Source: a virus
Taxonomy: Duplodnaviria > Heunggongvirae > Uroviricota > Caudoviricetes
Length of the DNA stretch: 64,000 nt
Virus record (IMG/VR): IMGVR_UViG_3300031999_007842
Location: 53,708 to 117,707 of that record
Direction: 5' to 3' (one strand)
Shown: positions 4,451 through 54,106 of the stretch, piece after piece
Position numbering within the stretch: the stretch's first letter is position 1
Layout: each line of letters starts with the position of its first letter
Translations under genes and position numbers: made by a program
Notes under the pieces: generated by a model
Seen by the model: only the letters and a program-made list of their open reading frames with translations
Told to the model about the DNA's origin: nothing
The model's database searches: none

Positions 4451-4462
4451 GCGAAATGAAAC

Positions 4463-7263: not shown

Positions 7264-7267
7264 ATAG

Positions 7268-39320: not shown

Positions 39321-39649
39321 TGGACTGTGAAATAGAGATCACTGAAGTTACTATCGGAGAAAGAAGGGGATTCAGTAACGGTGAATGGGTACACATTAAA
39401 TTCAAGGGAAAGAAGAACGACTTCGAATGCGAATCAGCGTATTACATATCAATGGACTGTCTTCTGCGCAATGACGTGGAGAAAGAGATACTCACTGGAA
39501 TATACAAGTCATTCAAGAATGCTTATGATAACCATATAGAAATAGAAAAGAAGAAACAAAGAGAGGAAGAAGTGAAAGCGCAAGCAAAAGCCTTAGCAGG
39601 AAGGAAGATAGAAGATATATTCAAGTTAGTAGGAGAGTTGGAAGAATGA
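39320..39649 (+). CDS. hypothetical protein
   Basis: start at ATG overlapping upstream TAA. Confidence 0.4.
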   Translation: MDCEIEITEVTIGERRGFSNGEWVHIKFKGKKNDFECESAYYISMDCLLRNDVEKEILTGIYKSFKNAYDNHIEIEKKKQREEEVKAQAKALAGRKIEDIFKLVGELEE

Positions 39650-40074
39650 CAACCTGGTTAACATCATCTCTAGGATTCCAAGCGATGCATGATGAATTCC
39701 CAGAAGATGTTTCAGTAGTGGAAGTTCTTGATCTGAAAGATGGCTGGAATGATCCAGAACTTGTGTACAAGAAAGCTAAGAAGATTCTGGCTAGGATAGG
39801 CAGAGGAAAGAAGGTGGTACTCTTCTGTCATGCAGGGCTTAGTAGAAGCCCAGGGATGGCCATTCTCGCACTTGCTTGGTTATCTAGGGTTGAATATGAA
39901 GATATGCACTTTCAAGTAGTCAAAGAAGCTCCTCAGGTTCAGATGGCTCCGGGCTTCGAAGGATGTTGCAAGGAAGCTTTGAAACTTCTGAATAAGAGAC
40001 TAGTCAAAACATGTGGATGCGGTGCTCCAATTGAAGAAGAAGAAAGCAAATGCGAATACTGCTCATCCATTTGA
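39646..40074 (+). CDS. dual-specificity/protein-tyrosine phosphatase-like protein
   Basis: VVLFCHAGLSRSPG = CX5R P-loop (HCxxGxxRS) signature. Confidence 0.6.
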   Translation: MTTWLTSSLGFQAMHDEFPEDVSVVEVLDLKDGWNDPELVYKKAKKILARIGRGKKVVLFCHAGLSRSPGMAILALAWLSRVEYEDMHFQVVKEAPQVQMAPGFEGCCKEALKLLNKRLVKTCGCGAPIEEEESKCEYCSSI

Positions 40075-40670: not shown

Positions 40671-41006
40671 ATGGATCAAATAAAAACTCTGGCTAGTATG
40701 GAAATTGGAGAAGAAGGTCACGTTATCCAAATTCTAGGTGACCAACAGGTCTATCACAAACTAATTTACCTGGGATTTCAAGCAGGTATTCTTGTGGCTG
40801 TCGAAAGAAGACAAACTGTTGGGATCACTCAAGTTCCGAGTATCTTTGTAAGGATAGGAAATAAGACTGTAGTTCTTCCTGAAAAAGATGCTGCTAAAGT
40901 CATAGTAAAAGTGAAAGGCTCCAGATCGATCCCATATTGGGAAAGACCTGAGGCATGGAGACCAATATGGCCTTTCTATCCTCGTTGGGGAGGAGTCTAT
41001 CAATGA
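40671..41006 (+). CDS. FeoA-like/SH3-like small protein
   Basis: L..M..GEEG.V.QI.G......L..LGF.AG..V............V.IGN..V.L....A..I FeoA-like pattern. Confidence 0.45.
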   Translation: MDQIKTLASMEIGEEGHVIQILGDQQVYHKLIYLGFQAGILVAVERRQTVGITQVPSIFVRIGNKTVVLPEKDAAKVIVKVKGSRSIPYWERPEAWRPIWPFYPRWGGVYQ

Positions 41007-41299
41007 AAAAGAAACATGTTGTATATGATGATTTCTGCGACATCTGTAACAAGATCATAGGCAGAACTCCATATGCCTCACCATATAAGTGTCAACTGTG
41101 TGGTAAAGAAATCTGCCAAGACTGTGCAAGATTCGTATGTTCCAAACCGGAACCTCCGCCAGTTTCAGGCGGATCTAGTGTCTGGTCTGGATTCGGAGTG
41201 TCATGTAATCATAAGGAAGAATTCATAATCTGCAAGAACTGCACAGATGCGTTGAAACTTTCCTTACTTGTAGTTGCAAGAAAAGCTCCTGGTGAATAA
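41003..41299 (+). CDS. double CxxC zinc-finger protein (paralog of 41808..42269)
   Basis: CDICN...CQLCGKEICQDC...ICKNCTDALKLSL. Confidence 0.45.
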   Translation: MKKKHVVYDDFCDICNKIIGRTPYASPYKCQLCGKEICQDCARFVCSKPEPPPVSGGSSVWSGFGVSCNHKEEFIICKNCTDALKLSLLVVARKAPGE

Positions 41300-41806
41300 A
41301 TGACAGATCTTAAACGTCACTCGAAAGGATACTGGAGAAGCATCTACATCTTTGGCCTGTATGAAGGTAAAGATCAGATAGAGATAAAGAACAAGTTAGT
41401 TCCCGAACTAGAACAGAGAAAACTTGTTTACTCCTATTGCTTCTATGGCAAGACTGGTGATGAAGCAGAACACATTACTTTCAGAATAAACTTCAAGACA
41501 AAGCAACAGATGGAAGATATCCTCAAGTTTGCCAAGAAACAGAAATGGAAGTTTGAGGATCACAATTATGATGAAGAGATGACTACGAAGATGGCTTATG
41601 TACTTGGAACTAAGATGGCACATGAGATACAAGCTACCCTGAAGGGAGAGGGTGATGTTGCTCTAAGTTCTAACTTTATAAGACTAATGCTTCATGGCAT
41701 GTTCAACGATCTACGTTATGGATACAAGGGTGAGTTTGAACTCTACTTTTTCCTTGTTAAAGCGATGCTATCCTCAGTATATGGCTTCAAAATTTCTGGT
41801 GATTGA
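41300..41806 (+). CDS. hypothetical protein
   Basis: 168-aa ORF. Confidence 0.45.
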   Translation: MTDLKRHSKGYWRSIYIFGLYEGKDQIEIKNKLVPELEQRKLVYSYCFYGKTGDEAEHITFRINFKTKQQMEDILKFAKKQKWKFEDHNYDEEMTTKMAYVLGTKMAHEIQATLKGEGDVALSSNFIRLMLHGMFNDLRYGYKGEFELYFFLVKAMLSSVYGFKISGD

Positions 41807-41807
41807 C

Positions 41808-42269
41808 ATGAGGTTCTGGCAAAGCAAAAAGAAGAAGATAAGACTACAAGACGTGTTATTACCTCCCAAAAAGGGTGGCAATAATCCTAGTCTCCTCCCT
41901 CTTGGCAATGCATGGAAATCTGTCTCATTACCTTCTACTTCTCCAAAGCTTCCAGAGCCAAAAGGACAATGTGAATGCTGTGGAAATGCAATCTACTCTG
42001 AGATCCAAGAATGCGAACTTTGCGGAAAAAAGATGTGTCAAGATTGTGATATGATTATCACCAAGACTATGCATAACTTGGGCTGGGGATCAAGCACACT
42101 CATGTATGTGCCTGGAAGCACACTTTCTTTCACAGGATCGAATCATAGTAATCAAAAGACTATTCCTAGGGACATTGCAATCTGTATAAGTTGTGCAGAA
42201 ATTCTCAAGTTAAGTCTACGTATAGCCGCATCGCAAGGAGTAATCGATAAAGATGAAACTCAAGAGTAA
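41808..42269 (+). CDS. double CxxC zinc-finger protein (paralog)
   Basis: CECCGN...CELCGKKMCQDC...ICISCAEILKLSL. Confidence 0.45.
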   Translation: MRFWQSKKKKIRLQDVLLPPKKGGNNPSLLPLGNAWKSVSLPSTSPKLPEPKGQCECCGNAIYSEIQECELCGKKMCQDCDMIITKTMHNLGWGSSTLMYVPGSTLSFTGSNHSNQKTIPRDIAICISCAEILKLSLRIAASQGVIDKDETQE

Positions 42270-42478
42270 AGAAGTAATCTGTGCAAGATGTGGGAAAGTT
42301 ATTTCCCAACGAAGGCGTTTTGCTCTCGTTCTTGAGAGTAGACGCAAATATTCAGCCTATGTGGAACAAACTGCTCTTCAGCTTTACTTCCATGAGAAGT
42401 GCATAACTAATATCTCTGTAAACATAAGAAATCTCTGGGATCTGATAAGAGTAATGAACAAGCTAGGAGCACAATAAA

Positions 42479-42727
42479 ATGACTAAGAAAAAGATACAGA
42501 AAGTAGACATCTGGGTTCCGCCCAAACGTTGCCCTCTCATGAATGAATGCGAAGACGTGATTGCTTGGGATTCATTCACTGAGATGTGTGATTCAGATAA
42601 CTGGATCTTCTGTGAGAAGACTACCGAGCTAGCAAAGAAGTATAAGCGAAAGCCTTATGAATGGAAACTCGTAAGGGAACTTGGTGGATTCCCTTGCGAT
42701 CAGATAAACCCAAGAAAAAGAAAGTAA
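42479..42727 (+). CDS. small Cys protein of the W[VI][FW]C...KKY.[RK]KPY.WK family
   Basis: NWIFCEKTTELAKKYKRKPYEWKLVRELGG. Confidence 0.4.
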   Translation: MTKKKIQKVDIWVPPKRCPLMNECEDVIAWDSFTEMCDSDNWIFCEKTTELAKKYKRKPYEWKLVRELGGFPCDQINPRKRK

Positions 42728-42739
42728 TACGAGGAAACT

Positions 42740-43021
42740 GTGAAGATTGTGGTAACTATGGAATCCTCAAACAAAAGGATGGGTCGTGGCTCTGCGAGGA
42801 CTGTAGATCGTACAGATGACGAATGCAAGCATGAATGGAAAGAAATAGGGACTTTGGTCTTCTATGAGGCAGGAGCTCCAACGATGCCTTCCAGTGAATG
42901 TTATTCAGGGCATTTGAAAACGGACAAGCTAATAGCAGTTCTCAAATGTGAGAAATGTAGAGAAGTCAAGTTCCAGTTCAGTCCTTGGAATATAATATTG
43001 GGAGGAAAGAAAGATGTGTAA
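42740..43021 (+). CDS. hypothetical protein
   Basis: co-directional ORF. Confidence 0.4.
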   Translation: MKIVVTMESSNKRMGRGSARTVDRTDDECKHEWKEIGTLVFYEAGAPTMPSSECYSGHLKTDKLIAVLKCEKCREVKFQFSPWNIILGGKKDV

Positions 43022-43265
43022 GTGGGGCACTTACAAGAAAGTATTAGTTACTATCCCCAAGGAACTAAGTTACACAAGGAAGGAACGAAGAGCTTATGTC
43101 GAGATTGATTTATGCATTGCCGATTTGGTGAAAGCTCTCAACAGGAATGGAATAAAGACTATTGCTTCCTGTTGTGGGCATGGAAAGGGCCAGGGAAGAA
43201 TTGATCTAGCTGATGGAAGAATACTTTTTATTCAGTCAAGGGAAGGCGAGGATGGATATGAATAA
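43014..43265 (+). CDS. hypothetical protein
   Basis: co-directional ORF. Confidence 0.4.
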   Translation: MCKWGTYKKVLVTIPKELSYTRKERRAYVEIDLCIADLVKALNRNGIKTIASCCGHGKGQGRIDLADGRILFIQSREGEDGYE

Positions 43266-43557
43266 ACAACAAGAATGGAGAAAGATCCTAGGGCAACATT
43301 TCTGTGAAGCTTGCAATTCAAGTATTCATAATCTGGTAAAGATCGGACTTAGTATTCCAATTCCTTTAGAGTATCTAAAAACACCAGAAGGTACAGAGTA
43401 TTTCCTTTGCCCAAACTGTATGCTAAGATTGATAACCTGTAGTCTTAGCAAGAATCAAGTAAAAAATCTACTTGAGAATGGCCACACCAGGAAGGAATTT
43501 TACTTGCATCATGATTTCTATGATGACATAGGCATTAGTTTGCAACCTTTGATTTGA
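43252..43557 (+). CDS. W-x-K-I-L-G family, Cys subtype (QEWRKILGQHFCEACNSS)
   Basis: start trimmed to internal ATG. Confidence 0.4.
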   Translation: MDMNKQQEWRKILGQHFCEACNSSIHNLVKIGLSIPIPLEYLKTPEGTEYFLCPNCMLRLITCSLSKNQVKNLLENGHTRKEFYLHHDFYDDIGISLQPLI

Positions 43558-43560
43558 AGG

Positions 43561-43794
43561 ATGGCCATTAATATGAGTGAATTAACACAGAAGAGACCAA
43601 GTTCTTGCCCACGGATACGTTCCTGTACGAACGAAGTAGATGAAATAGATTATAGTTCTACTTGTGCAAGCAAGAATTGGATTTGGTGTCCTCTCATGAA
43701 AGAAGAAGCCAAAAAATATCTACCTAAAGCTCTTCCCTGTGAGTGGAAAATGATAAAGAAATTAGAAGGTGAAAAAAAAGATGGAGAAAAGTGA
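43561..43794 (+). CDS. small Cys protein of the W[VI][FW]C...KKY family
   Basis: NWIWCPLMKEEAKKYLPKALPCEWKMIKKLEG. Confidence 0.4.
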   Translation: MAINMSELTQKRPSSCPRIRSCTNEVDEIDYSSTCASKNWIWCPLMKEEAKKYLPKALPCEWKMIKKLEGEKKDGEK

Positions 43795-45016
43795 AGAAAG
43801 AAAGTATGATAGTCCAGGAGAAAGAATGGACAAGTTAATGCTGGAACTGAAGAAGAAACGAAGCCTTAAGGGATTGAGAACAGCAGTCTCTGAAGTCCTG
43901 GGAGCAGCCCCTGGAGATATGAAAGACTTCAGTTTCAATATTGGTGCTCATAAATGGAGAGGGACCATTTACCAGAAACGTAACTCTCTGATGGGTACAG
44001 TTGTTTCCTTCTTCGATACTAAACTCTATGTAGTTCGTGGATATCCCAAGATCAAGTACTCTGATGATTCACGAGTCTATCTGAGAGATTGTGTAGCTCA
44101 AGAGAAGATAGATGGAAGCAACTTTGGAATATTCCTACTTCCAGATGGAACAATGATGGCCAAGACAAGAATGGTTGTCAACTGGAACAATGCTGCCTAC
44201 AAGCGAAAAGATAAGACATGGCGACAACTCTTTGAAATGATAGACAATGGAGATCTCTTGAGGCGCATCAATGAATTGATTGTCAATCATGACTGTGTTA
44301 TCTATGGAGAACTTTATGGGAAGCTCAACCCAGGAGACTTTGTCAAATATTCTGTAGACATAGCATTCAAAGTCTTTGACATCCTGACCCGTAAAACAAA
44401 TAGATTCTTGCCGGCAAGTGAAGTGTATCGACTCTGTGAAGTCTATGAGATTCCTCATGTACAAGAAACCTGGAATGGCATTCTAACTGACAAAGAAATA
44501 GAGAGAATTGAATTCGAACTACAAGATCAAGTGAAGGACGATGGAATGGAAGGTTGGGTAGCTAAGACCTTCTTCAAAGACGAGAAAGATGTTTACATGT
44601 GCAAACTGAAATGCCAGAAAGTCAAAGAGGAATGCTGGGACAAAGATAGAAAGCCAATGATTCCTACATCAATAGTTCGTAAGGCAGTTCGCAAGACGCT
44701 TGATAACTTCCCTGAAGCTAAGACGATTGAAGAAATGGAACCACATGTGCTGGATGAACTTCGAGAGGAAGTCGAGGAAGTGTTGATTCAACAGTCATTG
44801 GATAGAATCAGAGCAGAGATAAGATGGGCATTGACTCCAGAAGATGAGGACTTGCTAAAGATAGTCATTGATAAGATGAAGGAGATGCAGGATAGAGGAA
44901 TAGACTTGAGCAATAAAGGCCACGTTCTCTCTAACCTTTCCAGCGCTTTGGGAACGATAAGTGGTGGGAAACTCTATCAACTCTATCATGCAGCTTTACG
45001 AGACATAAACACCTAA
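43769..45016 (+). CDS. ATP-dependent RNA ligase, Rnl2-like (nucleotidyltransferase superfamily)
   Basis: motif I QEKIDGSNFGIF (Lys-x-Asp-Gly, Asn not Arg as in Rnl2 KIHGTN), motif IV EGWVAK, motif V KLKCQK. Confidence 0.55.
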   Translation: MKKKMEKSEERKYDSPGERMDKLMLELKKKRSLKGLRTAVSEVLGAAPGDMKDFSFNIGAHKWRGTIYQKRNSLMGTVVSFFDTKLYVVRGYPKIKYSDDSRVYLRDCVAQEKIDGSNFGIFLLPDGTMMAKTRMVVNWNNAAYKRKDKTWRQLFEMIDNGDLLRRINELIVNHDCVIYGELYGKLNPGDFVKYSVDIAFKVFDILTRKTNRFLPASEVYRLCEVYEIPHVQETWNGILTDKEIERIEFELQDQVKDDGMEGWVAKTFFKDEKDVYMCKLKCQKVKEECWDKDRKPMIPTSIVRKAVRKTLDNFPEAKTIEEMEPHVLDELREEVEEVLIQQSLDRIRAEIRWALTPEDEDLLKIVIDKMKEMQDRGIDLSNKGHVLSNLSSALGTISGGKLYQLYHAALRDINT

Positions 45017-45025: not shown

Positions 45026-45493
45026 GTGATGCAGAAGAAATACTGGATACTAGCAAGTCTGCTTTTGATTCTCCTAACCTTGGTTGGAGCAGTAACTTAT
45101 CTAAGTTCTCTGAAACGAATGAGCAATACTGCAACGTTGAGGAAATCTGTGGGTATTAGTACTTGGGGAGATAGCATATTCACGATACCAAAGAACGAAC
45201 ATAATTGGGGTGAGCTTGATGGAGGCATATGGTATAATTTCACATGCTGGATCAAGAGCGAAGCAAACGTACCAATCAACATCTCTTTCACAACTAAGAA
45301 CTGGATACCAGAAAACATGACTTATGAATGGAAAGTCTACGTGGATAGATTCGGTTGGAACCCAACAGCATTCATTCTATACAAGAACGAATGGACCTAT
45401 TTCGATTTCTTCCTGAAAATAGATTCAATGCCAGACTACATCTTTAACTTCAGTTTTGACATAGACATGAATTCTACAGAATGCATTCCATAG
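45026..45493 (+). CDS. secreted/membrane-anchored protein
   Basis: N-terminal signal/TM helix KYWILASLLLILLTLVGAV. Confidence 0.5.
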   Translation: MMQKKYWILASLLLILLTLVGAVTYLSSLKRMSNTATLRKSVGISTWGDSIFTIPKNEHNWGELDGGIWYNFTCWIKSEANVPINISFTTKNWIPENMTYEWKVYVDRFGWNPTAFILYKNEWTYFDFFLKIDSMPDYIFNFSFDIDMNSTECIP

Positions 45494-45848
45494 GACCATA
45501 GAGACTTGGTACGTTAATGGGATAAAAGAAGAGGTAACCGAAAACCCTCCGGTATTAGGCGAGGAAAGGAAGACAAGTATGGAACGCTCCTTTCCTGAAA
45601 GTCCTGCCTCGATCCCAGCGGAATACTCAAGTCTCTAAACCAATACCCTTATATTTTGGTTACACTGTTATGTGTATAAGACTCGGTGATTTGAATGGCA
45701 GAATGGTTCCTATCAAAGCCGCATTGTTTGCACAATCGTTTAAGTAGCAAACAGTCCGGTACAAAGTCACAAGAGTCGGAATAAACAAGATCACCAGTCT
45801 TTTGTTGTAGTTCCATTCTGTCATTAATCTGTTCTCTTGTGCGGTGAA

Positions 45849-45992
45849 GCGGAGGTGGCTGAGTCAGGTTTAAAGCGCCAGACTGCTAACAGGGGCGAAA
45901 CTTGAAACAGGGTGATACTGGAATCGAATCATTAACCTGACAGATATCTGGTGGGCTTGCCCGCGAAGGTTCAAATCCTTCCCTCCGCGCCA
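45849..45992 (+). tRNA. tRNA-Ser(GCT), 57-nt intron at 37/38 (45889..45945), CCA encoded
   Basis: acceptor GCGGAGG/CCTCCGC, D-arm, anticodon stem CCAGA/TCTGG, loop CUGCUA|A, long variable arm, T-arm GAAGG-TTCAAAT-CCTTC, GCCA end. Confidence 0.7.
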
Positions 45993-46004
45993 GTTACAAG
46001 GAAT

Positions 46005-46160
46005 GCAGGGGTAGCTAAGTCAGGCCGAAAGCGCCGGGCTTAAGCGTCTTTCAAAGACCTTGAGGGCGTAGCTAAGAGGCGTTAAGCTCAAAGGCTTGAC
46101 ACTGAGACACCCGGTCACATAGGTGAAACATCGCCGGTTCGAATCCGGCCCCCTGCACCA
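46005..46160 (+). tRNA. tRNA-Leu(TAA), 64-nt intron at 37/38 (46045..46108), CCA encoded
   Basis: acceptor GCAGGGG/CCCCTGC, anticodon stem CCGGG/CCCGG, loop CUUAAG, variable hairpin TCAC-ATAG-GTGA, T-arm GCCGG-TTCGAAT-CCGGC; intron repeats exon segment GTAGCTAAG. Confidence 0.7.
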
Positions 46161-46167
46161 GTAACAT

Positions 46168-46241
46168 GCCGATGTAGCCTAACTAGGAAAGGCAGTGGCT
46201 TTGTAAGCCACCTCATAGGAGTTCAACTCTCCTCATCGGCT
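46168..46241 (+). tRNA. tRNA-Thr(TGT), intronless, no CCA
   Basis: full cloverleaf: GCCGATG/CATCGGC, GTGGC-TTTGTAA-GCCAC, AGGAG-TTCAACT-CTCCT. Confidence 0.7.
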
Positions 46242-46244
46242 TTT

Positions 46245-46317
46245 GGATCTATAGCATAACAAGGCAGTGCAGTGGACCTTTAATCCACATATCCGAGTTC
46301 AAATCTCGGTAGATCCA
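46245..46317 (+). tRNA. tRNA-Lys(TTT), intronless, no CCA; unusual C at position 33
   Basis: GGATCTA/TAGATCC, GTGGA-CCTTTAA-TCCAC, CCGAG-TTCAAAT-CTCGG. Confidence 0.55.
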
Positions 46318-46320
46318 TTC

Positions 46321-46394
46321 GGACCATTAGCTTAACCAGGTAGAGCGGTAGACCCTTAATCTACTAATTGCGGGTTCAAATCCCGCATGGTCCT
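46321..46394 (+). tRNA. tRNA-Lys(CTT), intronless, no CCA; C at position 33
   Basis: GGACCAT/ATGGTCC, GTAGA-CCCTTAA-TCTAC, GCGGG-TTCAAAT-CCCGC. Confidence 0.55.
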
Positions 46395-46399
46395 TCAGT

Positions 46400-46471
46400 G
46401 GCTTGAGTAGTGTAGTAGCAGCACAGTGGTCTGTGGAGCCACGAGCAAGAGTGCAATCCTCTTCTCAAGCC
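46400..46471 (+). tRNA. tRNA-His(GTG) with G-1, intronless, no CCA
   Basis: extra 5' G pairing with discriminator C; GTGGT-CTGTGGA-GCCAC; T-loop TGCAATC (non-canonical position 55). Confidence 0.6.
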
Positions 46472-46478
46472 CTCATAT

Positions 46479-46552
46479 GCCTGAGTGGACAAGCCTGGAA
46501 AGTCAGTTGCCTGCAGAGCAACTAAGCGGGGGTTCAAATCCCCTCTCAGGCT
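46479..46552 (+). tRNA. tRNA-Cys(GCA), intronless, no CCA
   Basis: GCCTGAG/CTCAGGC, GTTGC-CTGCAGA-GCAAC, GGGGG-TTCAAAT-CCCCT. Confidence 0.6.
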
Positions 46553-46557
46553 TTCAA

Positions 46558-46977
46558 GCAGGTGTGATGTAATGGCAACATCCCAGCCTTCCAAAGTCAA
46601 ACAGAAGGGCTAATAGATCACCATCACTTGTATAAGTGGTGATAAAATGAAAACACCAGCACAAATCAATAAAGAATATAGACAAAGAGTAAGAGAAAAG
46701 GCAAATCAAGTCTTCGGGAAGAAATGTTTCTTCTGCGGACATGAAGTAGGAAGAATGCCTCTTCATAATAAGAAAGGAGAAAAGCATCCTACTGATTTGA
46801 CTGCAAGAGAAGCTTTGAAGAATCCTGAAGATTGGGTTCGTCTATGCAAACATTGCCATCGAGGAGTTCATTTCTCTATGAATATCCTTGAAATGGATTG
46901 GGAACAAATAGTTAAACTAGCAAAGAAAGTTTGACTGAGGAAAGCTGATTATCTGGGTTCAATTCCCAGCACCTGCA
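46558..46977 (+). tRNA. tRNA-Gly(TCC) interrupted by a 349-nt intron (46594..46942) that contains an HNH endonuclease ORF
   Basis: 5' exon GCAGGTG-TG-ATGT-AATGGCA-ACAT-C-CCAGC-CUUCCA; 3' exon A-GCTGA-TTAT-CTGGG-TTCAATT-CCCAG-CACCTGC-A. Confidence 0.55.
46647..46934 (+). CDS. HNH endonuclease encoded inside the tRNA-Gly intron
   Basis: CFFCGHE...LHNKKGEKH...CKHCHRGVH = CxxC...HN...CxxH HNH-like; ORF ends 8 nt before the 3' exon. Confidence 0.5.
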   Translation: MKTPAQINKEYRQRVREKANQVFGKKCFFCGHEVGRMPLHNKKGEKHPTDLTAREALKNPEDWVRLCKHCHRGVHFSMNILEMDWEQIVKLAKKV

Positions 46978-46983
46978 CTCATA

Positions 46984-47058
46984 GGGGTAGTGGTGTAGTT
47001 TGGTCAACATCCCTGGCTTGGAACCAGGTGAACGTCAGTTCGAGTCTGGCCTACCCCA
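46984..47058 (+). tRNA. tRNA-Pro(TGG), intronless, no CCA
   Basis: GGGGTAG/CTACCCC, CCTGG-CTTGGAA-CCAGG, GTCAG-TTCGAGT-CTGGC. Confidence 0.65.
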
Positions 47059-47073
47059 CTCATAGTCACGGTT

Positions 47074-47166
47074 TGGATAGGAGTTGTTGAGATGGGAACC
47101 GTGCACATCATAGCTTTACCTACTGAGGAAAAAGACTTTGCGACGGAACAACTAAGCTCCTATCCG
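47074..47166. other. long imperfect hairpin / tRNA-like remnant (14-bp stem GGATAGGAGTTGTT..AACAACTAAGCTCCTATCC)
   Basis: stem visible in sequence; no cloverleaf could be fitted. Confidence 0.3.
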
Positions 47167-47191
47167 TTAATTAAACTATCGAGGTTATAAC

Positions 47192-47328
47192 ATGACAGCA
47201 CTCAAAGATTGCAACAAGTGTGGTAAACAAGTAGACATGAAAGAGATAACCATCGTCTGGGATCCAGAAGGGCACTCTTTTACTTGGGTGTGTGGAAAAT
47301 GCCTCAAGATATATCGGCAACGTATATA
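47192..47328 (+). CDS. small zinc-ribbon protein (45 aa, below ORF-track cutoff)
   Basis: MTALKDCNKCGKQ...WVCGKCLKIY; ATG with upstream GAGG. Confidence 0.3.
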
Positions 47329-47607
47329 AGTAAGAGCGAATACCTATATATAGTCCAGTAAGTGAGAAGATGGCATACACAACTATGGCTTCACATCCGG
47401 ATGCGGGTTATTAGCCCGCAACCCAGAATCGGCTGGCAGTCGACTGGGAGGGTGAGGAGTCAGATGAGTGGGAAAGAAGAAGCATATCAAAGGAATAAAG
47501 GAACACACTACCTGCAGAAGGTGTCGTGTCCCGATAGTCTCTTGGAGTGCACTAGACCCAGTATGCATAAACTGTGCAATCTGGGGAGGACCCAAGAAAG
47601 ACTAAAT

Positions 47608-47620
47608 CCTTTCTTTTTTA
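47608..47620 (+). terminator. oligo-T tract (CCTTTCTTTTTTA), candidate archaeal-type terminator
   Basis: T-run directly upstream of tRNA-Tyr, at the end of an apparently noncoding GC-richer segment. Confidence 0.25.
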
Positions 47621-47626
47621 GTAACA

Positions 47627-47778
47627 CTTCTCGTGGTGTAATAGCAGCATAATTGACTGTAAATAGTAGAGCGAAGGGAATTGACTAACCGATGAAAATA
47701 GCTGAGGGCTATGGACTACCTGTTCGTTCGAATAGCAGTTACCAATCGGACTTGGTGCAAATCCAAGCGGGAAGACCA
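47627..47778 (+). tRNA. tRNA-Tyr(GTA), 78-nt intron at 37/38 (47663..47740), CCA encoded
   Basis: CTTCTCG/CGGGAAG acceptor (one G-U), GTGT-AATAGCA-GCAT D-arm, ATTGA-CUGUAA|, T-arm CTTGG-TGCAAAT-CCAAG, ACCA end. Confidence 0.55.
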
Positions 47779-47784
47779 ATAATA

Positions 47785-47789
47785 GGTGA
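47785..47789 (+). promoter_or_regulatory. GGTGA RBS-like motif
   Basis: 6 nt upstream of ATG 47796. Confidence 0.35.
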
Positions 47790-47795
47790 ATCGTA

Positions 47796-48764
47796 ATGGA
47801 TAAGAAATTGCTCTATCTCAAGTCAGTAAACCATGATGTCATCACTGTCTATATTGCTAAGGGAAGTTCTGTCCAGAAGACATTGAACTTACTGAAAAGA
47901 GAAGAGCCAATCGTACAGAATATTAAATCAAGAGTGACTAGGCAAGCAATCGAGACAGCATTCCAGAAGATCAAAAGCTTCCTAGCTAGTCCTCCTCCTT
48001 CAGAGAATGGATACATCGTTGTAGCTTCAGCCACTGACTTTGCTTGGACAGTAGAGTTCCTAATAGAGGAAGACTTCTATCGTTGTGGTAATGAATTCTA
48101 TTCTACACTTCTTGAAGAGATCCTATTACTCAAACTTTATCCAATAGGGATAATAACAATAGATACTAAGGAAGCCACGTTAGGTCACATAGGTTCCACG
48201 ATCCAGATTCTCAAGTACATGACTTCAGGAATACCAGGGAAGAGTCACAAAGGAGGACAATCTCAACGAAGGTATGAACGTGAAAGAGACATGGCAGTTG
48301 CAGCTTTCTTCAAACGAGTAGGAGATGCTGCTAAACTCTTTGTGGAGAACTATCCCATAGAAGAACTATTGATCTCTGGATGTGGGCAGACAAAGGATGA
48401 CTTCCTAAAGGCAAAGTACTTAGACTACCGCCTCAAAGCGAAGGTCACTGAAGTCATTGATACCCAATACACTGGTGAGCACGGAATCAGGGAAACCCTG
48501 CACAAAGCACTACCCCTTCTACAGAAGAATGCTTATGCAAGGGAGGTCCAGGTCGTTGAAAGGGTGTTTGAAATGCTGGGTAAGAACTTTGAGGCAGTAG
48601 TCTATGGACAAGATGAGATCAAGAGGCAGATTCATTCAATCAAGAAGATTATCAAGATAGAAGAGATCAAGGAAGAATATCAGAAGGAAACAGTTATCTT
48701 GCACTTTCACGGGGAACATTATGAGAAGATTAAGTCCTTGGGAGGAATAGTCGGAACCAAATAA
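47796..48764 (+). CDS. class-I peptide chain release factor, aRF1/eRF1-like, C-terminally truncated (322 aa)
   Basis: domain-1 NIKS motif (IVQNIKSRV) and YxCxxxF (YRCGNEF), domain-2 GGQ motif (HKGGQSQRRYER); by eye about 75 aa of domain-3-like sequence follows before the ORF ends. Confidence 0.7.
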   Translation: MDKKLLYLKSVNHDVITVYIAKGSSVQKTLNLLKREEPIVQNIKSRVTRQAIETAFQKIKSFLASPPPSENGYIVVASATDFAWTVEFLIEEDFYRCGNEFYSTLLEEILLLKLYPIGIITIDTKEATLGHIGSTIQILKYMTSGIPGKSHKGGQSQRRYERERDMAVAAFFKRVGDAAKLFVENYPIEELLISGCGQTKDDFLKAKYLDYRLKAKVTEVIDTQYTGEHGIRETLHKALPLLQKNAYAREVQVVERVFEMLGKNFEAVVYGQDEIKRQIHSIKKIIKIEEIKEEYQKETVILHFHGEHYEKIKSLGGIVGTK

Positions 48765-48925
48765 GGTCTGTCGGTCAGTTGGAACTGATCCCTGCCTGTC
48801 AATCTAAGAGCTCTCAAAAATGAGAGTGGGGTGGTGGACGAGGCGGCCCAGACTGGAAAATCTCCAAACTATACTCTTAGAACAGAACGTAGGGGAAGCG
48901 GGTCCGATTCCCGCACAGACCGCCA
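48765..48925 (+). tRNA. tRNA-Asp(GTC), about 86-nt intron at 37/38 (48802..48887), CCA encoded
   Basis: GGTCTGT/ACAGACC, GTCA-GTTGGAAC-TGAT, CCTGC-CUGUCA|...GTAGG, T-arm GCGGG-TCCGATT-CCCGC, GCCA end; starts 1 nt after aRF1 stop. Confidence 0.55.
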
Positions 48926-49168
48926 TTAAAGTGATTGCATGAATATAAATGCAGAGAATAATTCGTTTGTGCATTTCTGCACTCTTTCTCGGTTACCATA
49001 TATTGATTTCCATGTCCCTGGAAAAGATCGGGAACGCCTCTATCTGAAGATTGAATTAGGACAATTCTGGGGAATAACAATTGGAATTTGGGATATGGAG
49101 CATCATATCAGGAAATGGAAAAGACTAAGATTTTATACTAGATTAAAAGATCTCAAGAAGGAAAGGAA

Positions 49169-49492
49169 ATGGTAAGAATATATCACATGAGAACTAGATG
49201 GGAACCTGCAATATCAGATGGATTAACTTTGCCATGCTATATTTGTAGGGAAATTCCCAAGTTTGATTACAGTGTAGATCATGCTTTCTGGAAGGAGGTA
49301 GTAGAGAAAAAATATCGACTTGGAGTGATTTGTCTTCCTTGCTTAGATAAGTTGGCTACTGCAAAAGGATTGAATCTCTCGAAGCATCTGATTGAAGTTC
49401 AGTTCACAGGTATCAAGAAGACTATTGTCTTAGTTCCTACCAAAGTCTTCGACTACAGCAATTTCAAGAGAAAGAAGCCGGAAGAAAAGTGA
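49169..49492 (+). CDS. hypothetical protein
   Basis: co-directional ORF. Confidence 0.4.
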   Translation: MVRIYHMRTRWEPAISDGLTLPCYICREIPKFDYSVDHAFWKEVVEKKYRLGVICLPCLDKLATAKGLNLSKHLIEVQFTGIKKTIVLVPTKVFDYSNFKRKKPEEK

Positions 49493-49529
49493 AATGAAGA
49501 ATGAATAAACTCTCAAAAGAAGCAGATAT

Positions 49530-50069
49530 TTGGAAACAAAGAAGGAAGAAAAAGGAAAGATCATAATGGTTGATAGAAAAGAAATTGTCCAAAAATATAT
49601 TGATGAATGCCGATCACTTTCTGCTCTTGGAAGAGAATATCATATTTCCCGTTTCAAAGTGAGAGATATTCTCGAGGAAGCTAATATTCCAATAAGGATT
49701 CGGGGATATAGACCAAGAACTTTGAGAATTCCTACTGATGCGCGGAAATTAGCTTACATCGCTGGGATTGTCGATGGAGAAGGAACAATAAGTTATACAC
49801 ATATAAAGAATGGATTCAGAGAGAAGGCTCCCTTCATTGCCATAAAGAATACAGATAAGAATCTAATTGATTGGTTAGTCAAAACTCTAGGAGGAAATGT
49901 GAGCGAAGGAAAGGTCAGGAAAGGTTGGAAGACTCCTTATAGATGGTACAAGTACTCGACGTTGGATGTCTATGATCTTGTGAGTGTCCTGAGACCTTAC
50001 CTAATAATTAAGAAAGAAAATGCAGATCTGGTTCTTAAGATCTGCAAAGAAAGGATGGGAAAGATTTGA
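49530..50069 (+). CDS. LAGLIDADG-family homing endonuclease-like protein with N-terminal HTH
   Basis: LAYIAGIVDGEGTIS = LAG(L/I)(I/V)DG(D/E)G motif. Confidence 0.55.
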   Translation: METKKEEKGKIIMVDRKEIVQKYIDECRSLSALGREYHISRFKVRDILEEANIPIRIRGYRPRTLRIPTDARKLAYIAGIVDGEGTISYTHIKNGFREKAPFIAIKNTDKNLIDWLVKTLGGNVSEGKVRKGWKTPYRWYKYSTLDVYDLVSVLRPYLIIKKENADLVLKICKERMGKI

Positions 50070-51163
50070 ACGCTCTCTCCAAGCATTTAGAAACTTGGTG
50101 GCTATTAAGAATTTCAGATTTCAAAGCAGGAAAAGCTCTTTCACCTATTACCTTGAGAGGTCTTTTCTATCTTATGCGATTGAAGGTAGGACAGAAGAAA
50201 ATGCCTAAGAAAGGAGGATTCTATGCAATCATAAAAAGAATAGAAGCAGAAAAGAAAGTAAATCGAGAAAAGCTTGGACTTGTCTCAGAACCAAAAGTCA
50301 ATATCATTTCTCGATGGGGTGAAGAGCCTCTTCTCAAGGCTGATTTGAACAAACTGAAAGGAGCCTTGGCATTTCTTTACATTGAGAAAAGTACTATAGT
50401 AGAAGCGATAGAACAAGATAAAAGCCTCACAGATAGAGGAATTGTCATAATTAAAGGAATGGGATTTGCTCCTAGGGAAATAAACAGAGTCTTGAAGAAG
50501 GCTCAAGAATTGGGAATTCCTATTTTCACACTCACAGACTTTGATGCATCAGGGATCTTAATAGATTTGAAGATCCAGCAATCTGGAGTCTCTACGACTA
50601 GATTGGGTATAGATCCAGATCTAGTAAAAACACTTGGTCTTAAAGTCTCAGATGTTCGAGAAGCTCTTCCCAGAGGCAAGGGTAAACTTGGCCATTTCAA
50701 ATACCTTCAAACCAATTATCCAAAACTAGCTAAAGGATTTCTAGATATTGGAGTAGGAGGACAGCCATATCGCATAGAGATAGATGGTGTCTTTGCATTG
50801 GCTGGAAAGGACAGGTTCATTGAGGAGATACTCAAACGTGCAGACTTAGCAGTTCCAGTCAAACCTGTCAAGAAGGCTTTGAACTATAAGAAAATACCCA
50901 AGAAGGTGGAAGGGATGAGAAGCACGGTTCATGATCTTGTAGACAATATGTTTACCAAGACTGCCATAGGTGCAGAGCAAGGACTCATAAAGAACAATGA
51001 GTCATTTAACAAGATACGCCTGAGTGAAATAGAGAAGAATATTGAAGACAAGATAGAGAAAAAGGGTGAAGAAGTTCCTACCACTCAAGTCTTGGAAGAG
51101 ACAATCAAAGCATTGCAAAAACTTCTGGCAGAACAAAAAGCCAAGGAGAAGAAGAAACCATGA
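50066..51163 (+). CDS. Spo11/topoisomerase VI subunit A-like protein, stand-alone (mini-A-like)
   Basis: ITLRGLFYLMRL (R-x-hFY catalytic-Tyr motif of the winged helix); Toprim-like IEKSTIVEAIE ... GIVIIKGMGFAPRE ... PIFTLTDFDASGILI (E...DxD...G). Confidence 0.5.
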   Translation: MNALSKHLETWWLLRISDFKAGKALSPITLRGLFYLMRLKVGQKKMPKKGGFYAIIKRIEAEKKVNREKLGLVSEPKVNIISRWGEEPLLKADLNKLKGALAFLYIEKSTIVEAIEQDKSLTDRGIVIIKGMGFAPREINRVLKKAQELGIPIFTLTDFDASGILIDLKIQQSGVSTTRLGIDPDLVKTLGLKVSDVREALPRGKGKLGHFKYLQTNYPKLAKGFLDIGVGGQPYRIEIDGVFALAGKDRFIEEILKRADLAVPVKPVKKALNYKKIPKKVEGMRSTVHDLVDNMFTKTAIGAEQGLIKNNESFNKIRLSEIEKNIEDKIEKKGEEVPTTQVLEETIKALQKLLAEQKAKEKKKP

Positions 51164-51295
51164 AACCGATAAAGATAGATTGCCCTATATGTACCAAGAC
51201 TATACACATCGATCCTGAGATAGATTTAGTTATCTGTCAGAACTGTGGGCAGATGTTTAAGGTCAAGATTGAAATAACATTGGAGCAAACCAAAT

Positions 51296-51535
51296 ATGAG
51301 AAGATACTCTGAGAAAGAAGTGTGGTCAAAGATACTGGGATTTCAAGTAGGAGATTATGTCAGGTTTAGATTCCATGGATCTTTACAGCACTGGTTTTAT
51401 TATGGCAAGATAGTATCAAAAGTCTCAGATAAGCATGTCAAGTTTCTTATTAACTTGGAACATCCTTATTGGTGTGGAGTGCCAGTCTTCAATAATGATG
51501 AGATTCATCTAGCACAGAAGAGGTCCAGGAAATGA
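51296..51535 (+). CDS. W-x-K-I-L-G family (EVWSKILGFQVGDYVRFRFHG)
   Basis: motif. Confidence 0.45.
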   Translation: MRRYSEKEVWSKILGFQVGDYVRFRFHGSLQHWFYYGKIVSKVSDKHVKFLINLEHPYWCGVPVFNNDEIHLAQKRSRK

Positions 51536-51933
51536 AGTTCAACACAAAGAGAAGTTTTGAGATTCATACGTGTATGAAAGAAAGAGTATGCATCTGGTGT
51601 GGTAAAACTATTTTCAAAGGCAGTAGGTATTACTCGAAGCCAGAGTCAAACAAGATGATTGCCAGACTTCTGGAAGAAAAGACTGGCTATGATATCCACA
51701 CTATCAAAGCCCGTACTCATTTCTGGTACTGTGACAGAGTTTCTTGGCCTTTCTGCTCTACCGAATGTATGAGTAGTTTCTCAAGTTATACCTGGGAAAC
51801 TTTGCCATTTAATGTGAGAGGAAGAATGGGAAGCAGGATAGTTGGTATAGTGAATAAGATCCAAGATGTCATAGGAATGATAACTGCACTTGGTGGATCA
51901 AAGGGGAAAGATCATGAAACAAATGAGGCATAG
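51532..51933 (+). CDS. Cys-rich hypothetical protein
   Basis: ATGA overlap. Confidence 0.4.
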   Translation: MKFNTKRSFEIHTCMKERVCIWCGKTIFKGSRYYSKPESNKMIARLLEEKTGYDIHTIKARTHFWYCDRVSWPFCSTECMSSFSSYTWETLPFNVRGRMGSRIVGIVNKIQDVIGMITALGGSKGKDHETNEA

Positions 51934-51983
51934 TTCCATGGAAAGTGAATGTATATATTCCCAGGACACTGTAAAGTAGTTGA

Positions 51984-52289
51984 GTGACTATGAAAGAAGA
52001 AACAACGAAGATGAAAGACGTAGTCTTAGTCTCTAGAAAGACCACATGTATCCCAATTGCAATTCCAGAAAGGACTGTACCATCCTCGAGAGTCTTTGAC
52101 ATTAGGCAATATAGAGAAAAAGACTGGGTACTTATCTTCATGGACAAAGAAACCTATGAATCACTCAAGGCCTTATGTGAAGCACGAGGGCTTGATGTGA
52201 AGAAAGTTGTATATGGCAGTATTATGAAAACAAGAGATCTATTAAGGGAGGAAGAGAAAAAGAATGGTAAAGAGAAATCCGAGCTTTAA
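51984..52289 (+). CDS. hypothetical protein
   Basis: co-directional ORF. Confidence 0.4.
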   Translation: MTMKEETTKMKDVVLVSRKTTCIPIAIPERTVPSSRVFDIRQYREKDWVLIFMDKETYESLKALCEARGLDVKKVVYGSIMKTRDLLREEEKKNGKEKSEL

Positions 52290-53124
52290 AGTTGGATCAG
52301 TTGAAGGAAGAAAATCTTTGAGGGTTAGCGAACTATTTAGATGCCCTAGAGCATTACAATTTGAGTTCCTCTGCTCTCCAAAGGATCCTGAAAAATACGA
52401 GACAGTGCGAGGAAGATGGCTTCATCTGTTATTTGAAGAATACTTAGGAATCGATCCTTCAGTGTACCAGTCTTATTTCCGTAAGAAGATGCTCAAGTAT
52501 GTGGATGTCTCATATTCTGATCCTTACGTAAAGAGGAGACTGGTTGAAGATCTGCTTGAGTATGAAGCCAAGATCAAGACTTTTCTTCTGAATACAAAGC
52601 GTGGCAAAGATATTTCGAAGAATGCTCACAAGTATCAGATAGAAGAGACAATGAGGATTCCGGTAGAAGAACTGGGTTTGAACCTTCCTATACCTATGGA
52701 GATTCAGCAGAAATATTGTCTTTCAGGGAAACCAGACTTTAAGTACAAAAACCAGATAGTAGAGATCAAAGGTCGAAAAGAATTAGCTCCTAATCAGAAA
52801 ATGCAGGCTTTTGCATACTCCTTTATGGCTGATGTCGTAGAACCAGGAATCAAACATGGTAACCTCTATCTGCTATTGGGTGGTAGCAAGGTGAATGTAA
52901 AAAGGAATCCTTTCTATACATGGAGACCATGGAAGAGAAATCCTAACCAAGAACTAGCTGATAGAATCACTGAGCTGATCTGGAACTTTGAGAAGATAGG
53001 AGATAACAAGGAAATGCTAGAAATTAGAAGAAGTGGTGATTGCCAATTCTGTGACTATTGGACTTCATGCATGACTATCAAGAAACCACGAACAGATTGG
53101 AGAGTTATCTACAAGAAGAAATAG
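52264..53124 (+). CDS. Cas4-like / RecB-family PD-(D/E)XK nuclease with 4-Cys cluster
   Basis: N-terminal Cys (CPRALQFEF), GKPDFKYKNQIVEIKGRKE (D...E-x-K), C-terminal CQFCDYWTSC (C-x2-C-x5-C). Confidence 0.6.
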   Translation: MVKRNPSFKVGSVEGRKSLRVSELFRCPRALQFEFLCSPKDPEKYETVRGRWLHLLFEEYLGIDPSVYQSYFRKKMLKYVDVSYSDPYVKRRLVEDLLEYEAKIKTFLLNTKRGKDISKNAHKYQIEETMRIPVEELGLNLPIPMEIQQKYCLSGKPDFKYKNQIVEIKGRKELAPNQKMQAFAYSFMADVVEPGIKHGNLYLLLGGSKVNVKRNPFYTWRPWKRNPNQELADRITELIWNFEKIGDNKEMLEIRRSGDCQFCDYWTSCMTIKKPRTDWRVIYKKK

Positions 53125-53137
53125 GAGGTGCATGTAG

Positions 53138-54106
53138 ATGGAAATGAAGAATAAGACTGTAATAGGTAAGAAGATATTCGCCTATGTTAAAGTCAAGGAC
53201 CTGAAGATTTCCGAATATAATGTTAGGCCAGGAGCCACACCTGAAGAGAAGGAGGAAATCAAGACTGAATTAGCCAAGTCGATAAAAGAGCTAGGACTTC
53301 AACAACTTCCAGTTATCACTCCAGAAGGAGAAGTCTTCATTGGAGGGCGGAGAACTATAGCATTCAAAGAACTTGGAGAGGAATGGATGCTTGCCGAGAT
53401 CAGAAATGCTGCACCCTTTGAACAGATGATTGCTTCTTACACAGAGAACTTCCATAGAAAGAGTCCAGATTATATGAATGAAGGTAGACTTTTCAAAGAG
53501 ATGATCAAGGAAGGAGTTGCAAAAGGAGATATCAAGTTGCAAGGCCATGGTGACAAGGGGCATGGTATACTTGGCAAGAAACTAGGAATTTCCAATGATT
53601 ATGTAGATGCCAGGGTTAGAATCTTTGAAACTCTCAGTTCCGCCGCCGGCGGATCTGGAATAGCCTTTGAACAAGCAAGGATGCTAAGTACCTCAGATAT
53701 ACCAGATGATAAAAGGGCAGAACTTGTAAAGATGGCAAGTGAAGGAATCAAGACCCAAGATCTCAAGAAGATTATAGCAACTACAAATGCTACCAAGGCA
53801 CTACTTGAGGGAGAAACCGAGGAAGTACAGAAACAAGCAGAAAAGGAATTCAAAGACCAACTATATACTAAGGACTTGGACATTACAGCGATTAAATGGA
53901 GACTCGAAGAGATCGCTGGAGATTCCCATTCAACTGGCAAAGGAAGAATCTGGTGGGATGAGCATGGAATCACTTCAACAGAGGAAGCAATAGCGTGGTT
54001 CAAGAAATATGGTGGTCGACATCTTAGAGATCTAAAAGGTTCAGATGGCGAATGGGACAAGACAAAGGAGAAAATGACAAACGGAGGAAAGAATGAGGAT
54101 GACTGA
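53138..54106 (+). CDS. ParB/sulfiredoxin-like nuclease-domain protein
   Basis: LAKSIKELGLQQLPVITPEGEVFIGGRRTIAFKELG matches the ParB N-terminal box (G.RR..A). Confidence 0.55.
   Translation: MEMKNKTVIGKKIFAYVKVKDLKISEYNVRPGATPEEKEEIKTELAKSIKELGLQQLPVITPEGEVFIGGRRTIAFKELGEEWMLAEIRNAAPFEQMIASYTENFHRKSPDYMNEGRLFKEMIKEGVAKGDIKLQGHGDKGHGILGKKLGISNDYVDARVRIFETLSSAAGGSGIAFEQARMLSTSDIPDDKRAELVKMASEGIKTQDLKKIIATTNATKALLEGETEEVQKQAEKEFKDQLYTKDLDITAIKWRLEEIAGDSHSTGKGRIWWDEHGITSTEEAIAWFKKYGGRHLRDLKGSDGEWDKTKEKMTNGGKNEDD

Follow-up and report, generated by a model that had tools for sequence, protein, structure and literature searches.

The stretch of DNA analysed here (the window; 64,000 nucleotides, positions 53,708 to 117,707 of IMG/VR record IMGVR_UViG_3300031999_007842, a virus of the Caudoviricetes) was found to encode an ATP-dependent RNA ligase which, as judged from its sequence and predicted fold, combines an Rnl3/Rnl1-like catalytic half with a helical tail private to its clade. 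We consider the chances about even that this ligase seals RNA breaks as part of a virus-encoded repair function by which the translation apparatus is kept working in infected cells, with tRNAs as the prime substrate candidates and possibly rRNA as well. The gene and its predicted domains are as follows.

43769 to 45016, + strand: ATP-dependent RNA ligase gene, 415 amino acids from a GTG start
43814 to 44083, + strand: N-terminal domain of the ligase, residues 16-105, two helices and beta-hairpins
44084 to 44614, + strand: adenylyltransferase domain of the ligase, residues 106-282
44615 to 45013, + strand: clade-specific all-alpha C-terminal module of the ligase, residues 283-415 (approximately 135), eight helices

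Catalytic motifs and conservation of the ligase

An initial annotation, made from the letters of the window alone, had reported an RNA ligase gene at 43769-45016. The open reading frame (ORF) is real, and the ORF listing gave the same coordinates and a product of 415 amino acids. Public gene calls, made for the same contig in ENA (metagenomic, 171,794 bp) and for a Logan contig, start at the ATG at 43781 and give a protein of 411 amino acids (P0001). The N-terminal domain contained the family-specific motifs KRNSLMG (43976-43996) and RGYPKIKY (44036-44059). The adenylyltransferase domain contained motif I, EKIDGSN, with the nucleophile K113 (residues 112-118, nucleotides 44102-44122), motif Ia, KTR (residues 132-134, 44162-44170), motif III, GELYG (residues 180-184, 44306-44320), motif IIIa, FKVFD (residues 200-204, 44366-44380), motif IV, EGWVAK (residues 261-266, 44549-44566), and motif V, KLKCQK (residues 279-284, 44603-44620). 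Motifs I, IV and V had already been quoted in the initial annotation, and they were located as read; all six motifs were found to be invariant in 37 homologues.

A total of 46 homologues was found, all of them metagenomic. In the alignment of 37 sequences (mean column identity 46%), K113, G116, K132-T133-R134, G180-E181-L182, D204, G262, K266, K279 and K281 were invariant. The AlphaFold2 model of the ligase had a mean predicted local distance difference test (pLDDT) score of 91. The Pfam model PF09414 (RNA_ligase) matched above its gathering threshold (E 9.8e-19; 68.6 bits, cut-off 27), and PHROG 548 ('RNA ligase') matched with an E value of 4e-13. This motif and profile evidence exceeds chance by far, and the enzyme class itself is already recognised by standard annotation. 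With its catalytic residues intact, the enzyme is apparently catalytically competent.

Several ligase homologues were split by inteins with LAGLIDADG/Hint domains (P0047, P0048, P0050, P0051 and P0095; loci L038, 7152-9467, and L039, 1499-3337), and P0050 (1379 amino acids) apparently contains two. The intein of L038 is located directly after the N-terminal-domain motif RN(S/T)(L/M)MG, an insertion point which suggests that the site of this motif is functionally critical.

Family assignment

The profile and fold comparisons indicate that the enzyme is a nucleotidyltransferase-type RNA ligase, neither a DNA ligase nor a capping enzyme. Motif I carries Asn and not the Arg of DNA ligases and capping enzymes, as had been noted from EKIDGSN in the initial annotation, and is of the Rnl2/Rnl3 type; an Asn at this site is common to Rnl2 and Rnl3 only (PMC4797309). 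No Pfam DNA-ligase match to the ligase was obtained, and the KxDGxR form of motif I, an OB-fold after motif V and profile matches to DNA ligases or capping enzymes were all absent. Fold comparison scores were no higher than 12.3 against DNA ligases and no higher than 8.8 against capping enzymes. A DNA ligase or a capping enzyme was therefore rejected on profiles and fold. Assignment to one of these two classes was the outcome that the initial annotation had named as speaking against an RNA ligase, and the profile and structure comparisons did not give it.

Fold comparison of the ligase gave scores of 17.9 with MthRnl (243 aligned residues), 17.6 with T4 Rnl1 (250 residues), 16.1 with the fungal Trl1 ligase domain (254 residues), 16.1 with Rnl5 (185 residues) and 14.6 with T4 Rnl2 and REL1 (173-179 residues). 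It is the N-terminal domain that accounts for the 65-75 additional residues aligned with Rnl3 and Rnl1, and HMMER aligned the segment GTVVSF...RGYPKIK of the ligase to residues 52-72 of MthRnl. When the family profile was compared with PDB sequences, the E values were 1.4e-10 for MthRnl, 3e-10 for the Aquifex protein 3qwu, 2e-8 for Pab1020, 2e-7 for Palaeococcus Rnl3 and 8.5e-5 for T4 Rnl2, and no significant match to REL1 or Naegleria Rnl5 was found in this search. The best BFVD matches of the ligase were phage RnlA-type ligases. Residues K97, N102, T117, R118, E151, F175, E231 and K246 of MthRnl were previously identified as important (PMC4797309). As mapped by alignment, their equivalents are all conserved in the ligase. 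R104 of MthRnl is not conserved, its equivalent being G120.

The curated family models were less generous. The ligase scored 52 bits against NCBIfam TIGR01209 (the Pab1020/Rnl3 model; cut-off 137) and 29.4 bits against TIGR02307 (Rnl2; cut-off 197.15), the latter with only profile positions 22-145 aligned. Rnl3 enzymes are built from four domains, an N-terminal, an adenylyltransferase, a dimerisation and a C-terminal domain (PMC4797309). The ligase has the Rnl3-type N-terminal domain ahead of its adenylyltransferase domain and lacks the dimerisation and C-terminal region (PF18330). The two-domain plan of Rnl2, in which the adenylyltransferase domain lies at the N-terminus and is followed by a nick-recognition domain, was not found, nor were Rnl1 family sequence membership and the Rnl1-type tRNA-binding C-terminal domain. 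Canonical Rnl2 or Rnl3 membership was rejected on the curated cut-offs and the C-terminal domain. The earlier label 'Rnl2-like' thus holds at the superfamily level, as an RNA ligase, but not for Rnl2 itself, since Rnl3 proteins and the Rnl3 model scored higher and the C-terminal domains of both families are absent. On these comparisons the correct label would be Rnl3/Rnl1-like with a novel C-terminal module.

The C-terminal module had no match to any solved ligase domain. A profile of the module was compared with 1.84 billion representative proteins and was found in 72 clusters only, which shows that the ligase belongs to a distinct, rare clade. Most of the 72 clusters contain proteins of 370-430 amino acids with the match at the C-terminus, and the long ones are intein-interrupted ligases. 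The clade is almost wholly confined to large (approximately 70-185 kb) uncultivated viruses or mobile elements. No description of the virus group or of the ligase clade was found in the literature. A tblastn search for annotated phage relatives gave two weak matches only, both in Vibrio jumbo phages and with 27% identity. Vibrio phage D479 (L062, OZ195776.1) encodes the ligase's nearest relative among annotated phages (4025-5044; 27% identity) and, 2 kb downstream of it, an annotated 'phosphoesterase' (6998-7588).

Two distant full-length members, P0079 (504 amino acids) and P0093 (527 amino acids; L063 290-1873), have an apparent N-terminal MJ1316 'RNA cyclic group end recognition' domain. 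P0093 was 24% identical to the ligase over residues 21-410 (E 1e-15), and on its contig a class I methyltransferase gene lies 0.9 kb, and genes for tRNA-Leu and tRNA-Ile lie 3.3 kb, downstream.

Genes linked to the ligase

The neighbouring features of the window that bear on the function of the ligase are given below; they include the aRF1 gene and the two homing endonucleases that the initial annotation had placed nearby.

39646 to 40074, + strand: Cys-phosphatase (DSP-like) with the CX5R P-loop HCHAGLSRS and a C-terminal Zn-ribbon, 3.7 kb upstream of the ligase
45849 to 47059, + strand: array of 9 tRNAs (ARAGORN and Rfam)
46647 to 46934, + strand: HNH endonuclease ORF, 95 amino acids, inside the tRNA-Gly intron (PHROG HNH families, best E 5.8e-5)
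47796 to 48764, + strand: aRF1 paralogue, 322 amino acids, with NIKS and GGQ motifs and a short domain 3
48765 to 48925, + strand: tRNA-Asp(GUC) with an intron of approximately 86 nucleotides, immediately 3' of the aRF1 stop codon
49530 to 50069, + strand: LAGLIDADG-type homing endonuclease with an N-terminal helix-turn-helix (PHROG 5046, E 1.4e-22, a family labelled 'HNH endonuclease')

Approximately 60 loci encoding ligase relatives were collected, and recurrent neighbours, identified by clustering of all flank ORFs, were seen across approximately 45 loci. Phosphoesterases of two unrelated folds were the commonest. The Cys-phosphatase of the window matched Pfam DSPc weakly (E 9.6e-4); its orthologue in L003 is annotated as DSPc, and that in L011 scored 43.7 bits against the DSPc cut-off of 33.5. 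This phosphatase accompanies the ligase in 10-11 loci, including the distant L011, and adjoins the ligase in L023. It is a candidate RNA end-healing partner. A calcineurin-type metallophosphoesterase (above its Pfam threshold, and matching phrog_547 with E 8e-42) lies close to the ligase in 6 loci, directly downstream of it in L008, L009, L031 and L037, and L023 carries both phosphoesterase types. The initial annotation had recognised no polynucleotide kinase/phosphatase in the window; this stands for the kinase, but a candidate phosphatase is present at 39646-40074.

The ligase and the metallophosphoesterase match adjacent PHROG numbers, 548 and 547, respectively. The metallophosphoesterase lineages also have a conserved four-gene block upstream of the ligase (L008 3213-6196, L009 6565-9278, L010 1008-4014 and L030 1144-3936). 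One of its products is ThiF/E1-like (Pfam E 2e-25), and another has a JAB/MPN-resembling HxH...S..D motif and no Pfam match. This block may be a ubiquitin-like conjugation system.

Translation genes were the other recurrent neighbours. In L003, where the ligase is 83% identical, the whole arrangement of the window is shared, including an array of 14 tRNAs, 4 of them intron-bearing. An aRF1 gene was found near the ligase in 6 loci and in three different arrangements, at +0.5 kb (L014), +0.66 kb (L016), -0.7 kb (L034), +4.2 kb (L038) and +2.8 to +3.5 kb (the window and L003). Where tRNA clusters in the sampled flanks were confirmed by Rfam (the window/L003 lineage, L009, L011, L038 and L045), all of them lay in the first 5 kb downstream of the ligase. 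This segment makes up 32% of the sampled flank, giving a binomial p of 0.004-0.015 from small numbers and observations that are not fully independent. In L063 the tRNAs likewise lie downstream of the ligase (ARAGORN only). The long-intron calls made by ARAGORN for a tRNA-Glu of L009 and a tRNA-Leu of L030 were unconfirmed by Rfam and were discounted. The 'translation-apparatus maintenance module' of the initial annotation is therefore supported as a neighbourhood of tRNAs, aRF1 and phosphoesterases that recurs in several lineages and in varied arrangements, but it is facultative and not universal.

Proposed function and alternative explanations

In the proposed repair pathway, K113 would be adenylylated by ATP to give a lysyl-AMP intermediate, the AMP would be passed to an RNA 5'-phosphate to form 5'-adenylylated RNA (AppRNA), and a 3'-OH would then attack AppRNA and seal the break; these three steps are established ligase chemistry. 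A phosphoesterase, the Cys-phosphatase here and the metallophosphoesterase elsewhere, could strip 2',3'-cyclic or 3'-phosphates to provide the 3'-OH. The 5'-phosphate might be left directly by metal-dependent nucleases that produce 5'-P/3'-OH ends, or be added by a host or other kinase; archaeal Clp1-type kinases exist. The helical module would pick the RNA substrate, the adjoining tRNA array would replace depleted tRNAs, and the aRF1 paralogue would free stalled ribosomes. Judging from the phosphoesterase partners and the MJ1316 fusions, 2',3'-cyclic or 3'-phosphate ends in need of healing would be among the substrates, and the recurring phosphatase, tRNA and release-factor neighbours suggest repair of broken translation RNA rather than tRNA splicing. 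A more elaborate form of this proposal, which we put forward tentatively and regard as unlikely, is an archaeal-virus rescue-and-repair module that parallels bacterial PrfH-RtcB with unrelated parts. In it the truncated aRF1 would free ribosomes stalled by attack of host nucleases, the phosphoesterase would heal the ends, the ligase would reseal tRNA or rRNA recognised by its helical tail, and the tRNA array would replace what is beyond repair.

Several observations weigh against RNA repair. A Walker-A scan of all flank ORFs revealed no 5'-OH polynucleotide kinase close to the ligase at any locus, returning one singleton 96-amino-acid P-loop ORF (L027) and nothing recurrent, and precomputed gene tables covering most of the window contained no kinase Pfam match. 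The P-loop of the Cys-phosphatase, HCxAGxSRS, is not diagnostic of activity on RNA ends; it resembles the protein-type or general DSPs and not the HCTHGxNRT subgroup of RNA triphosphatases, and the closest solved relatives of the phosphatase, matched weakly, are small protein tyrosine phosphatases. A DUSP11/BVP-type RNA 5'-polyphosphatase is unsupported on both counts. The co-occurrence of phosphatase and ligase comes largely from related lineages that share block synteny, so these observations are not independent. The MJ1316 matches of P0079 and P0093 scored 25.1 and 21 bits, respectively, below the Pfam threshold of 26.3. The tRNA/aRF1 association is missing from the long-flank loci L007, L008, L010, L027, L041, L048 and L065, and many long-flank loci have no tRNA, aRF1 or phosphoesterase partners. 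In L007 (IMG/VR; ligase 50% identical) synteny is retained on both sides and the block at 45026-51500 of the window is missing (L007 11209-11292), so that the ligase is followed directly by homologues of the window genes at 51532-54106. The tRNA/aRF1 block is thus a lineage-specific accessory insertion outside the conserved core. Finally, the nearest characterised relatives, the Rnl3 enzymes, act in RNA circularisation and not in tRNA repair.

Circularisation of the kind carried out by cellular Rnl3 is the main rival, and we regard it as possible though somewhat unlikely. The ligase would join the 5'-P and 3'-OH ends of one single-stranded RNA (a C/D-box small RNA, a viral small RNA or an excised intron) for stability or regulation. 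Its closest characterised homologues, by sequence and by fold, are Rnl3 enzymes, relatives are named 'ATP-dependent RNA circularization protein' by JGI, and no kinase would be needed if the substrates were 5'-monophosphate RNAs. In vitro, Rnl3 closes single-stranded RNA into circles, and in Pyrococcus and Thermococcus it does so with C/D-box RNAs (PMC4797309, PMC12153264). However, the ligase scores far under the TIGR01209 cut-off (52 against 137 bits) and the C-terminal half of Rnl3 is absent, and repair of broken ends is indicated by the recurring neighbours (genes for phosphoesterases, tRNAs and aRF1) and by the relatives fused to MJ1316. An enzyme that leaves AppRNA as a protective or marking cap, with ligation incomplete, is the least probable of the alternatives considered. 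The motifs for steps 1 and 2 are intact, and Palaeococcus Rnl3 shows strong substrate adenylylation with weak ligation, for which a capping-like role was proposed (PMC12153264). However, T133-R134, the equivalent of MthRnl T117/R118 required for step 3, is invariant in the clade, and nothing specific to capping was found in the gene context.

The position of the gene, 0.8 kb upstream of an array with introns in 4 of 10 tRNAs, and the intron-bearing tRNAs approximately 1 kb downstream of the ligase in L003 and L011 could also point to a dedicated splicing ligase for the virus's own intron-containing tRNAs. We consider this quite improbable. The introns are short, and those of tRNA-Ser, tRNA-Leu and tRNA-Gly are located at the canonical archaeal 37/38 site or close to it. 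EndA cleavage produces a 2',3'-cyclic phosphate end and a 5'-OH end that RtcB joins directly, with no ATP-dependent ligase required, and such a ligase would need a kinase and a phosphoesterase before it could act on EndA-cut ends. The ligase is kept where no tRNA lies within 10 kb (L007, L008, L010, L027 and L065) and where the nearby tRNAs are intronless (L009, L038, L045 and L063), and L013 reveals the tRNA-Gly intron as a recent mobile insertion. The link to tRNA splicing that the initial annotation had implied is not needed, since canonical-site introns can be left to EndA and RtcB and the ligase is conserved without nearby tRNAs. A sealer of DNA or mixed-strand nicks, serving replication or recombination of the element, appears improbable as well. 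Genes for a PD-(D/E)XK nuclease and a ParB-like protein follow the ligase in the syntenic core, as seen in L007, the window has a Top6A/Spo11-like gene close by, no other ligase was seen within the window, and some Rnl-type enzymes can seal DNA-containing nicks. However, the ligase has no OB-fold or DNA-binding domain, finds no DNA-ligase model in Pfam, and carries Asn at the position of the DNA-ligase Arg in motif I (PMC4797309).

Comparison with known systems

Compared to Rnl3 (MthRnl, PDB 5d1o; Pab1020, 2vug; PpaRnl, 8uce; TIGR01209/PF18330), the ligase has the same order of an N-terminal domain before the adenylyltransferase domain and the same Asn in KxxGxN. It differs in having the eight-helix clade-specific module instead of the dimerisation and C-terminal region, and in being encoded by large viruses, whereas Rnl3 is encoded by cellular archaea and paired with HARP. 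The physiological role of the Rnl3 branch is still debated. Formation of a homodimer and circularisation of single-stranded RNA are features of Rnl3 (PMC4797309).

With T4 Rnl1 the ligase shares the plan of an adenylyltransferase domain and an all-alpha C-terminal domain, a viral origin and the presence of tRNA genes in the same genome. T4 Rnl1 (RnlA) is the tRNA-repair ligase that acts with T4 Pnkp against the PrrC anticodon nuclease. In contrast, identity between the two ligases is 15%, no Rnl1 Pfam match was obtained, motif I here is of the Rnl2/Rnl3 type, and no Pnkp-type kinase-phosphatase was found beside the ligase. With T4 Rnl2 and REL1 only the core aligns (173-179 residues); the ligase has an N-terminal domain and is without the nick-binding C-terminal domain of Rnl2.

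Two bacterial systems are comparable at the level of gene linkage. Bacterial Pnkp-Hen1 consists of kinase, metallophosphoesterase and ligase. The repeated linkage of a phosphoesterase to the ligase, which in some lineages is a calcineurin-type metallophosphoesterase, resembles this system, but no kinase or Hen1 is found beside the ligase here. For the bacterial PrfH-RtcB operon a coupling of ribosome rescue to RNA repair was proposed (PMC6514570), and a recurrent link between an RNA ligase and a release-factor paralogue is seen there, as here. The enzyme here is an ATP-dependent 5'-P/3'-OH sealer in place of RtcB, and the factor is of the aRF1 type in place of the bacterial RF type. In contrast to both bacterial systems, the genes here are viral and their linkage is looser (0.5-4 kb) and not constant.

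RNA ligases are classic counter-defence enzymes of phages, and to our knowledge almost nothing is known about RNA repair in the viruses of archaea. The tRNA array and aRF1 of the window would fit the tRNA provisioning and RNA repair of jumbo phages and echo the PrfH-RtcB pairing. For jumbo phages, phage RNA ligases and tRNA provisioning are established as counter-defence (PMC7824862). The clade also gives a hint that archaeal hosts attack the viral translation apparatus as bacteria do. The recurrent partners (two kinds of phosphoesterase, tRNA arrays, aRF1 and MJ1316 fusions) yield testable predictions about the RNA ends acted upon. With a Rnl3/Rnl1-like half joined to a new helical module, the clade is a natural experiment in the substrate-recognition domains of ligases, and the enzyme is a candidate for use in RNA biotechnology.

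The tRNA island and other local genes

The tRNA island begins 833 nucleotides past the ligase stop codon, and introns were found in 4 of its 10 tRNAs, in agreement with the initial placement of the ligase just upstream of an intron-rich island. The order of the array is Ser(GCU), Leu(UAA), Thr, Lys(UUU), Lys(CUU), His, Cys, Gly(UCC) and Pro(UGG). The introns of tRNA-Ser(GCU) and tRNA-Leu(UAA) are 57 and 64 nucleotides long, respectively, and both begin directly after position 37. The minimum free energy structure of tRNA-Ser given by RNAfold showed no textbook bulge-helix-bulge, and a relaxed one could be drawn by hand, which is not rigorous. In tRNA-Gly(UCC) (46558-46978), miscalled by ARAGORN as Arg(CCG), a 347-nucleotide intron (46595-46941) begins after position 37 or 38, an ambiguity due to two A residues at the boundary; the identity of the tRNA and the boundaries were taken from the intronless variant in L013 (approximately 4814-4885). 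L013 is a 99.8%-identical contig from another sample in which tRNA-Gly is uninterrupted, so the intron is evidently mobile and polymorphic within the population. Position 33 also distinguishes the two tRNA-Gly alleles, with U in the window and C in L013. The tRNA-Asp was overlooked by both ARAGORN and Rfam; its 5' 25 nucleotides (100%) and 3' 27 nucleotides (89%) match the intronless tRNA-Asp of L003 (16085-16159). The intron site at or near 37/38 is established for Ser, Leu and Gly, and the position of the Asp intron is approximate.

The aRF1 paralogue matched eRF1_2 (E 1.2e-28) and TIGR03676 (E 4e-61), the latter with a score of 206.9, below the cut-off of 234.7. Rather than a full aRF1, the protein may be a factor specialised in termination or rescue. 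The LAGLIDADG-type ORF had weak matches to Pfam LAGLIDADG_1 and LAGLIDADG_3. The block at 45026-51500 consists of a small ORF with a transmembrane segment, the tRNA island, aRF1, small ORFs, the LAGLIDADG gene and the Top6A/Spo11-like Toprim gene (50066-51163). A PADLOC search for defence systems gave no match for the ligase, the phosphatase, aRF1 or the downstream ORF. Upstream of the ligase, at 40955-43794, a run of small Cys-rich (Zn-ribbon-like) ORFs was found, some of them paralogous; the run is syntenic in L003, L007, L015, L016 and L029.

The element and its host

All genes of the window were called on the + strand, the GC content is approximately 40%, and GC skew was positive in 32 of 32 two-kb bins, a pattern compatible with a single long arm that is replicated or transcribed in one direction. 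The products are mostly ORFans; the recognisable ones include aRF1, the Top6A/Spo11-like Toprim protein, the PD-(D/E)XK nuclease, the ParB-like protein and a MoxR-like ATPase. Five ligase relatives are located on IMG/VR viral contigs of 92-121 kb. Single copies were found on small contigs binned with metagenome-assembled genomes (MAGs) of Heimdallarchaeota and Njordarchaeales, and the Njord contig appears to be viral by its genes. The element is probably a large virus or virus-like element and probably of archaeal origin because of its aRF1, the tRNA introns at or near 37/38 and the copies on contigs binned with Asgard MAGs; an Asgard host is weakly suggested. On the same contig, approximately 1.5 kb past the 3' end of the window, a 523-amino-acid eukaryote-type topoisomerase IB is encoded (L005 16678-18249; Topoisom_I_N, Topoisom_I and Topo_C_assoc), and genes for an RNase H-like protein and a GNAT acetyltransferase lie near it.

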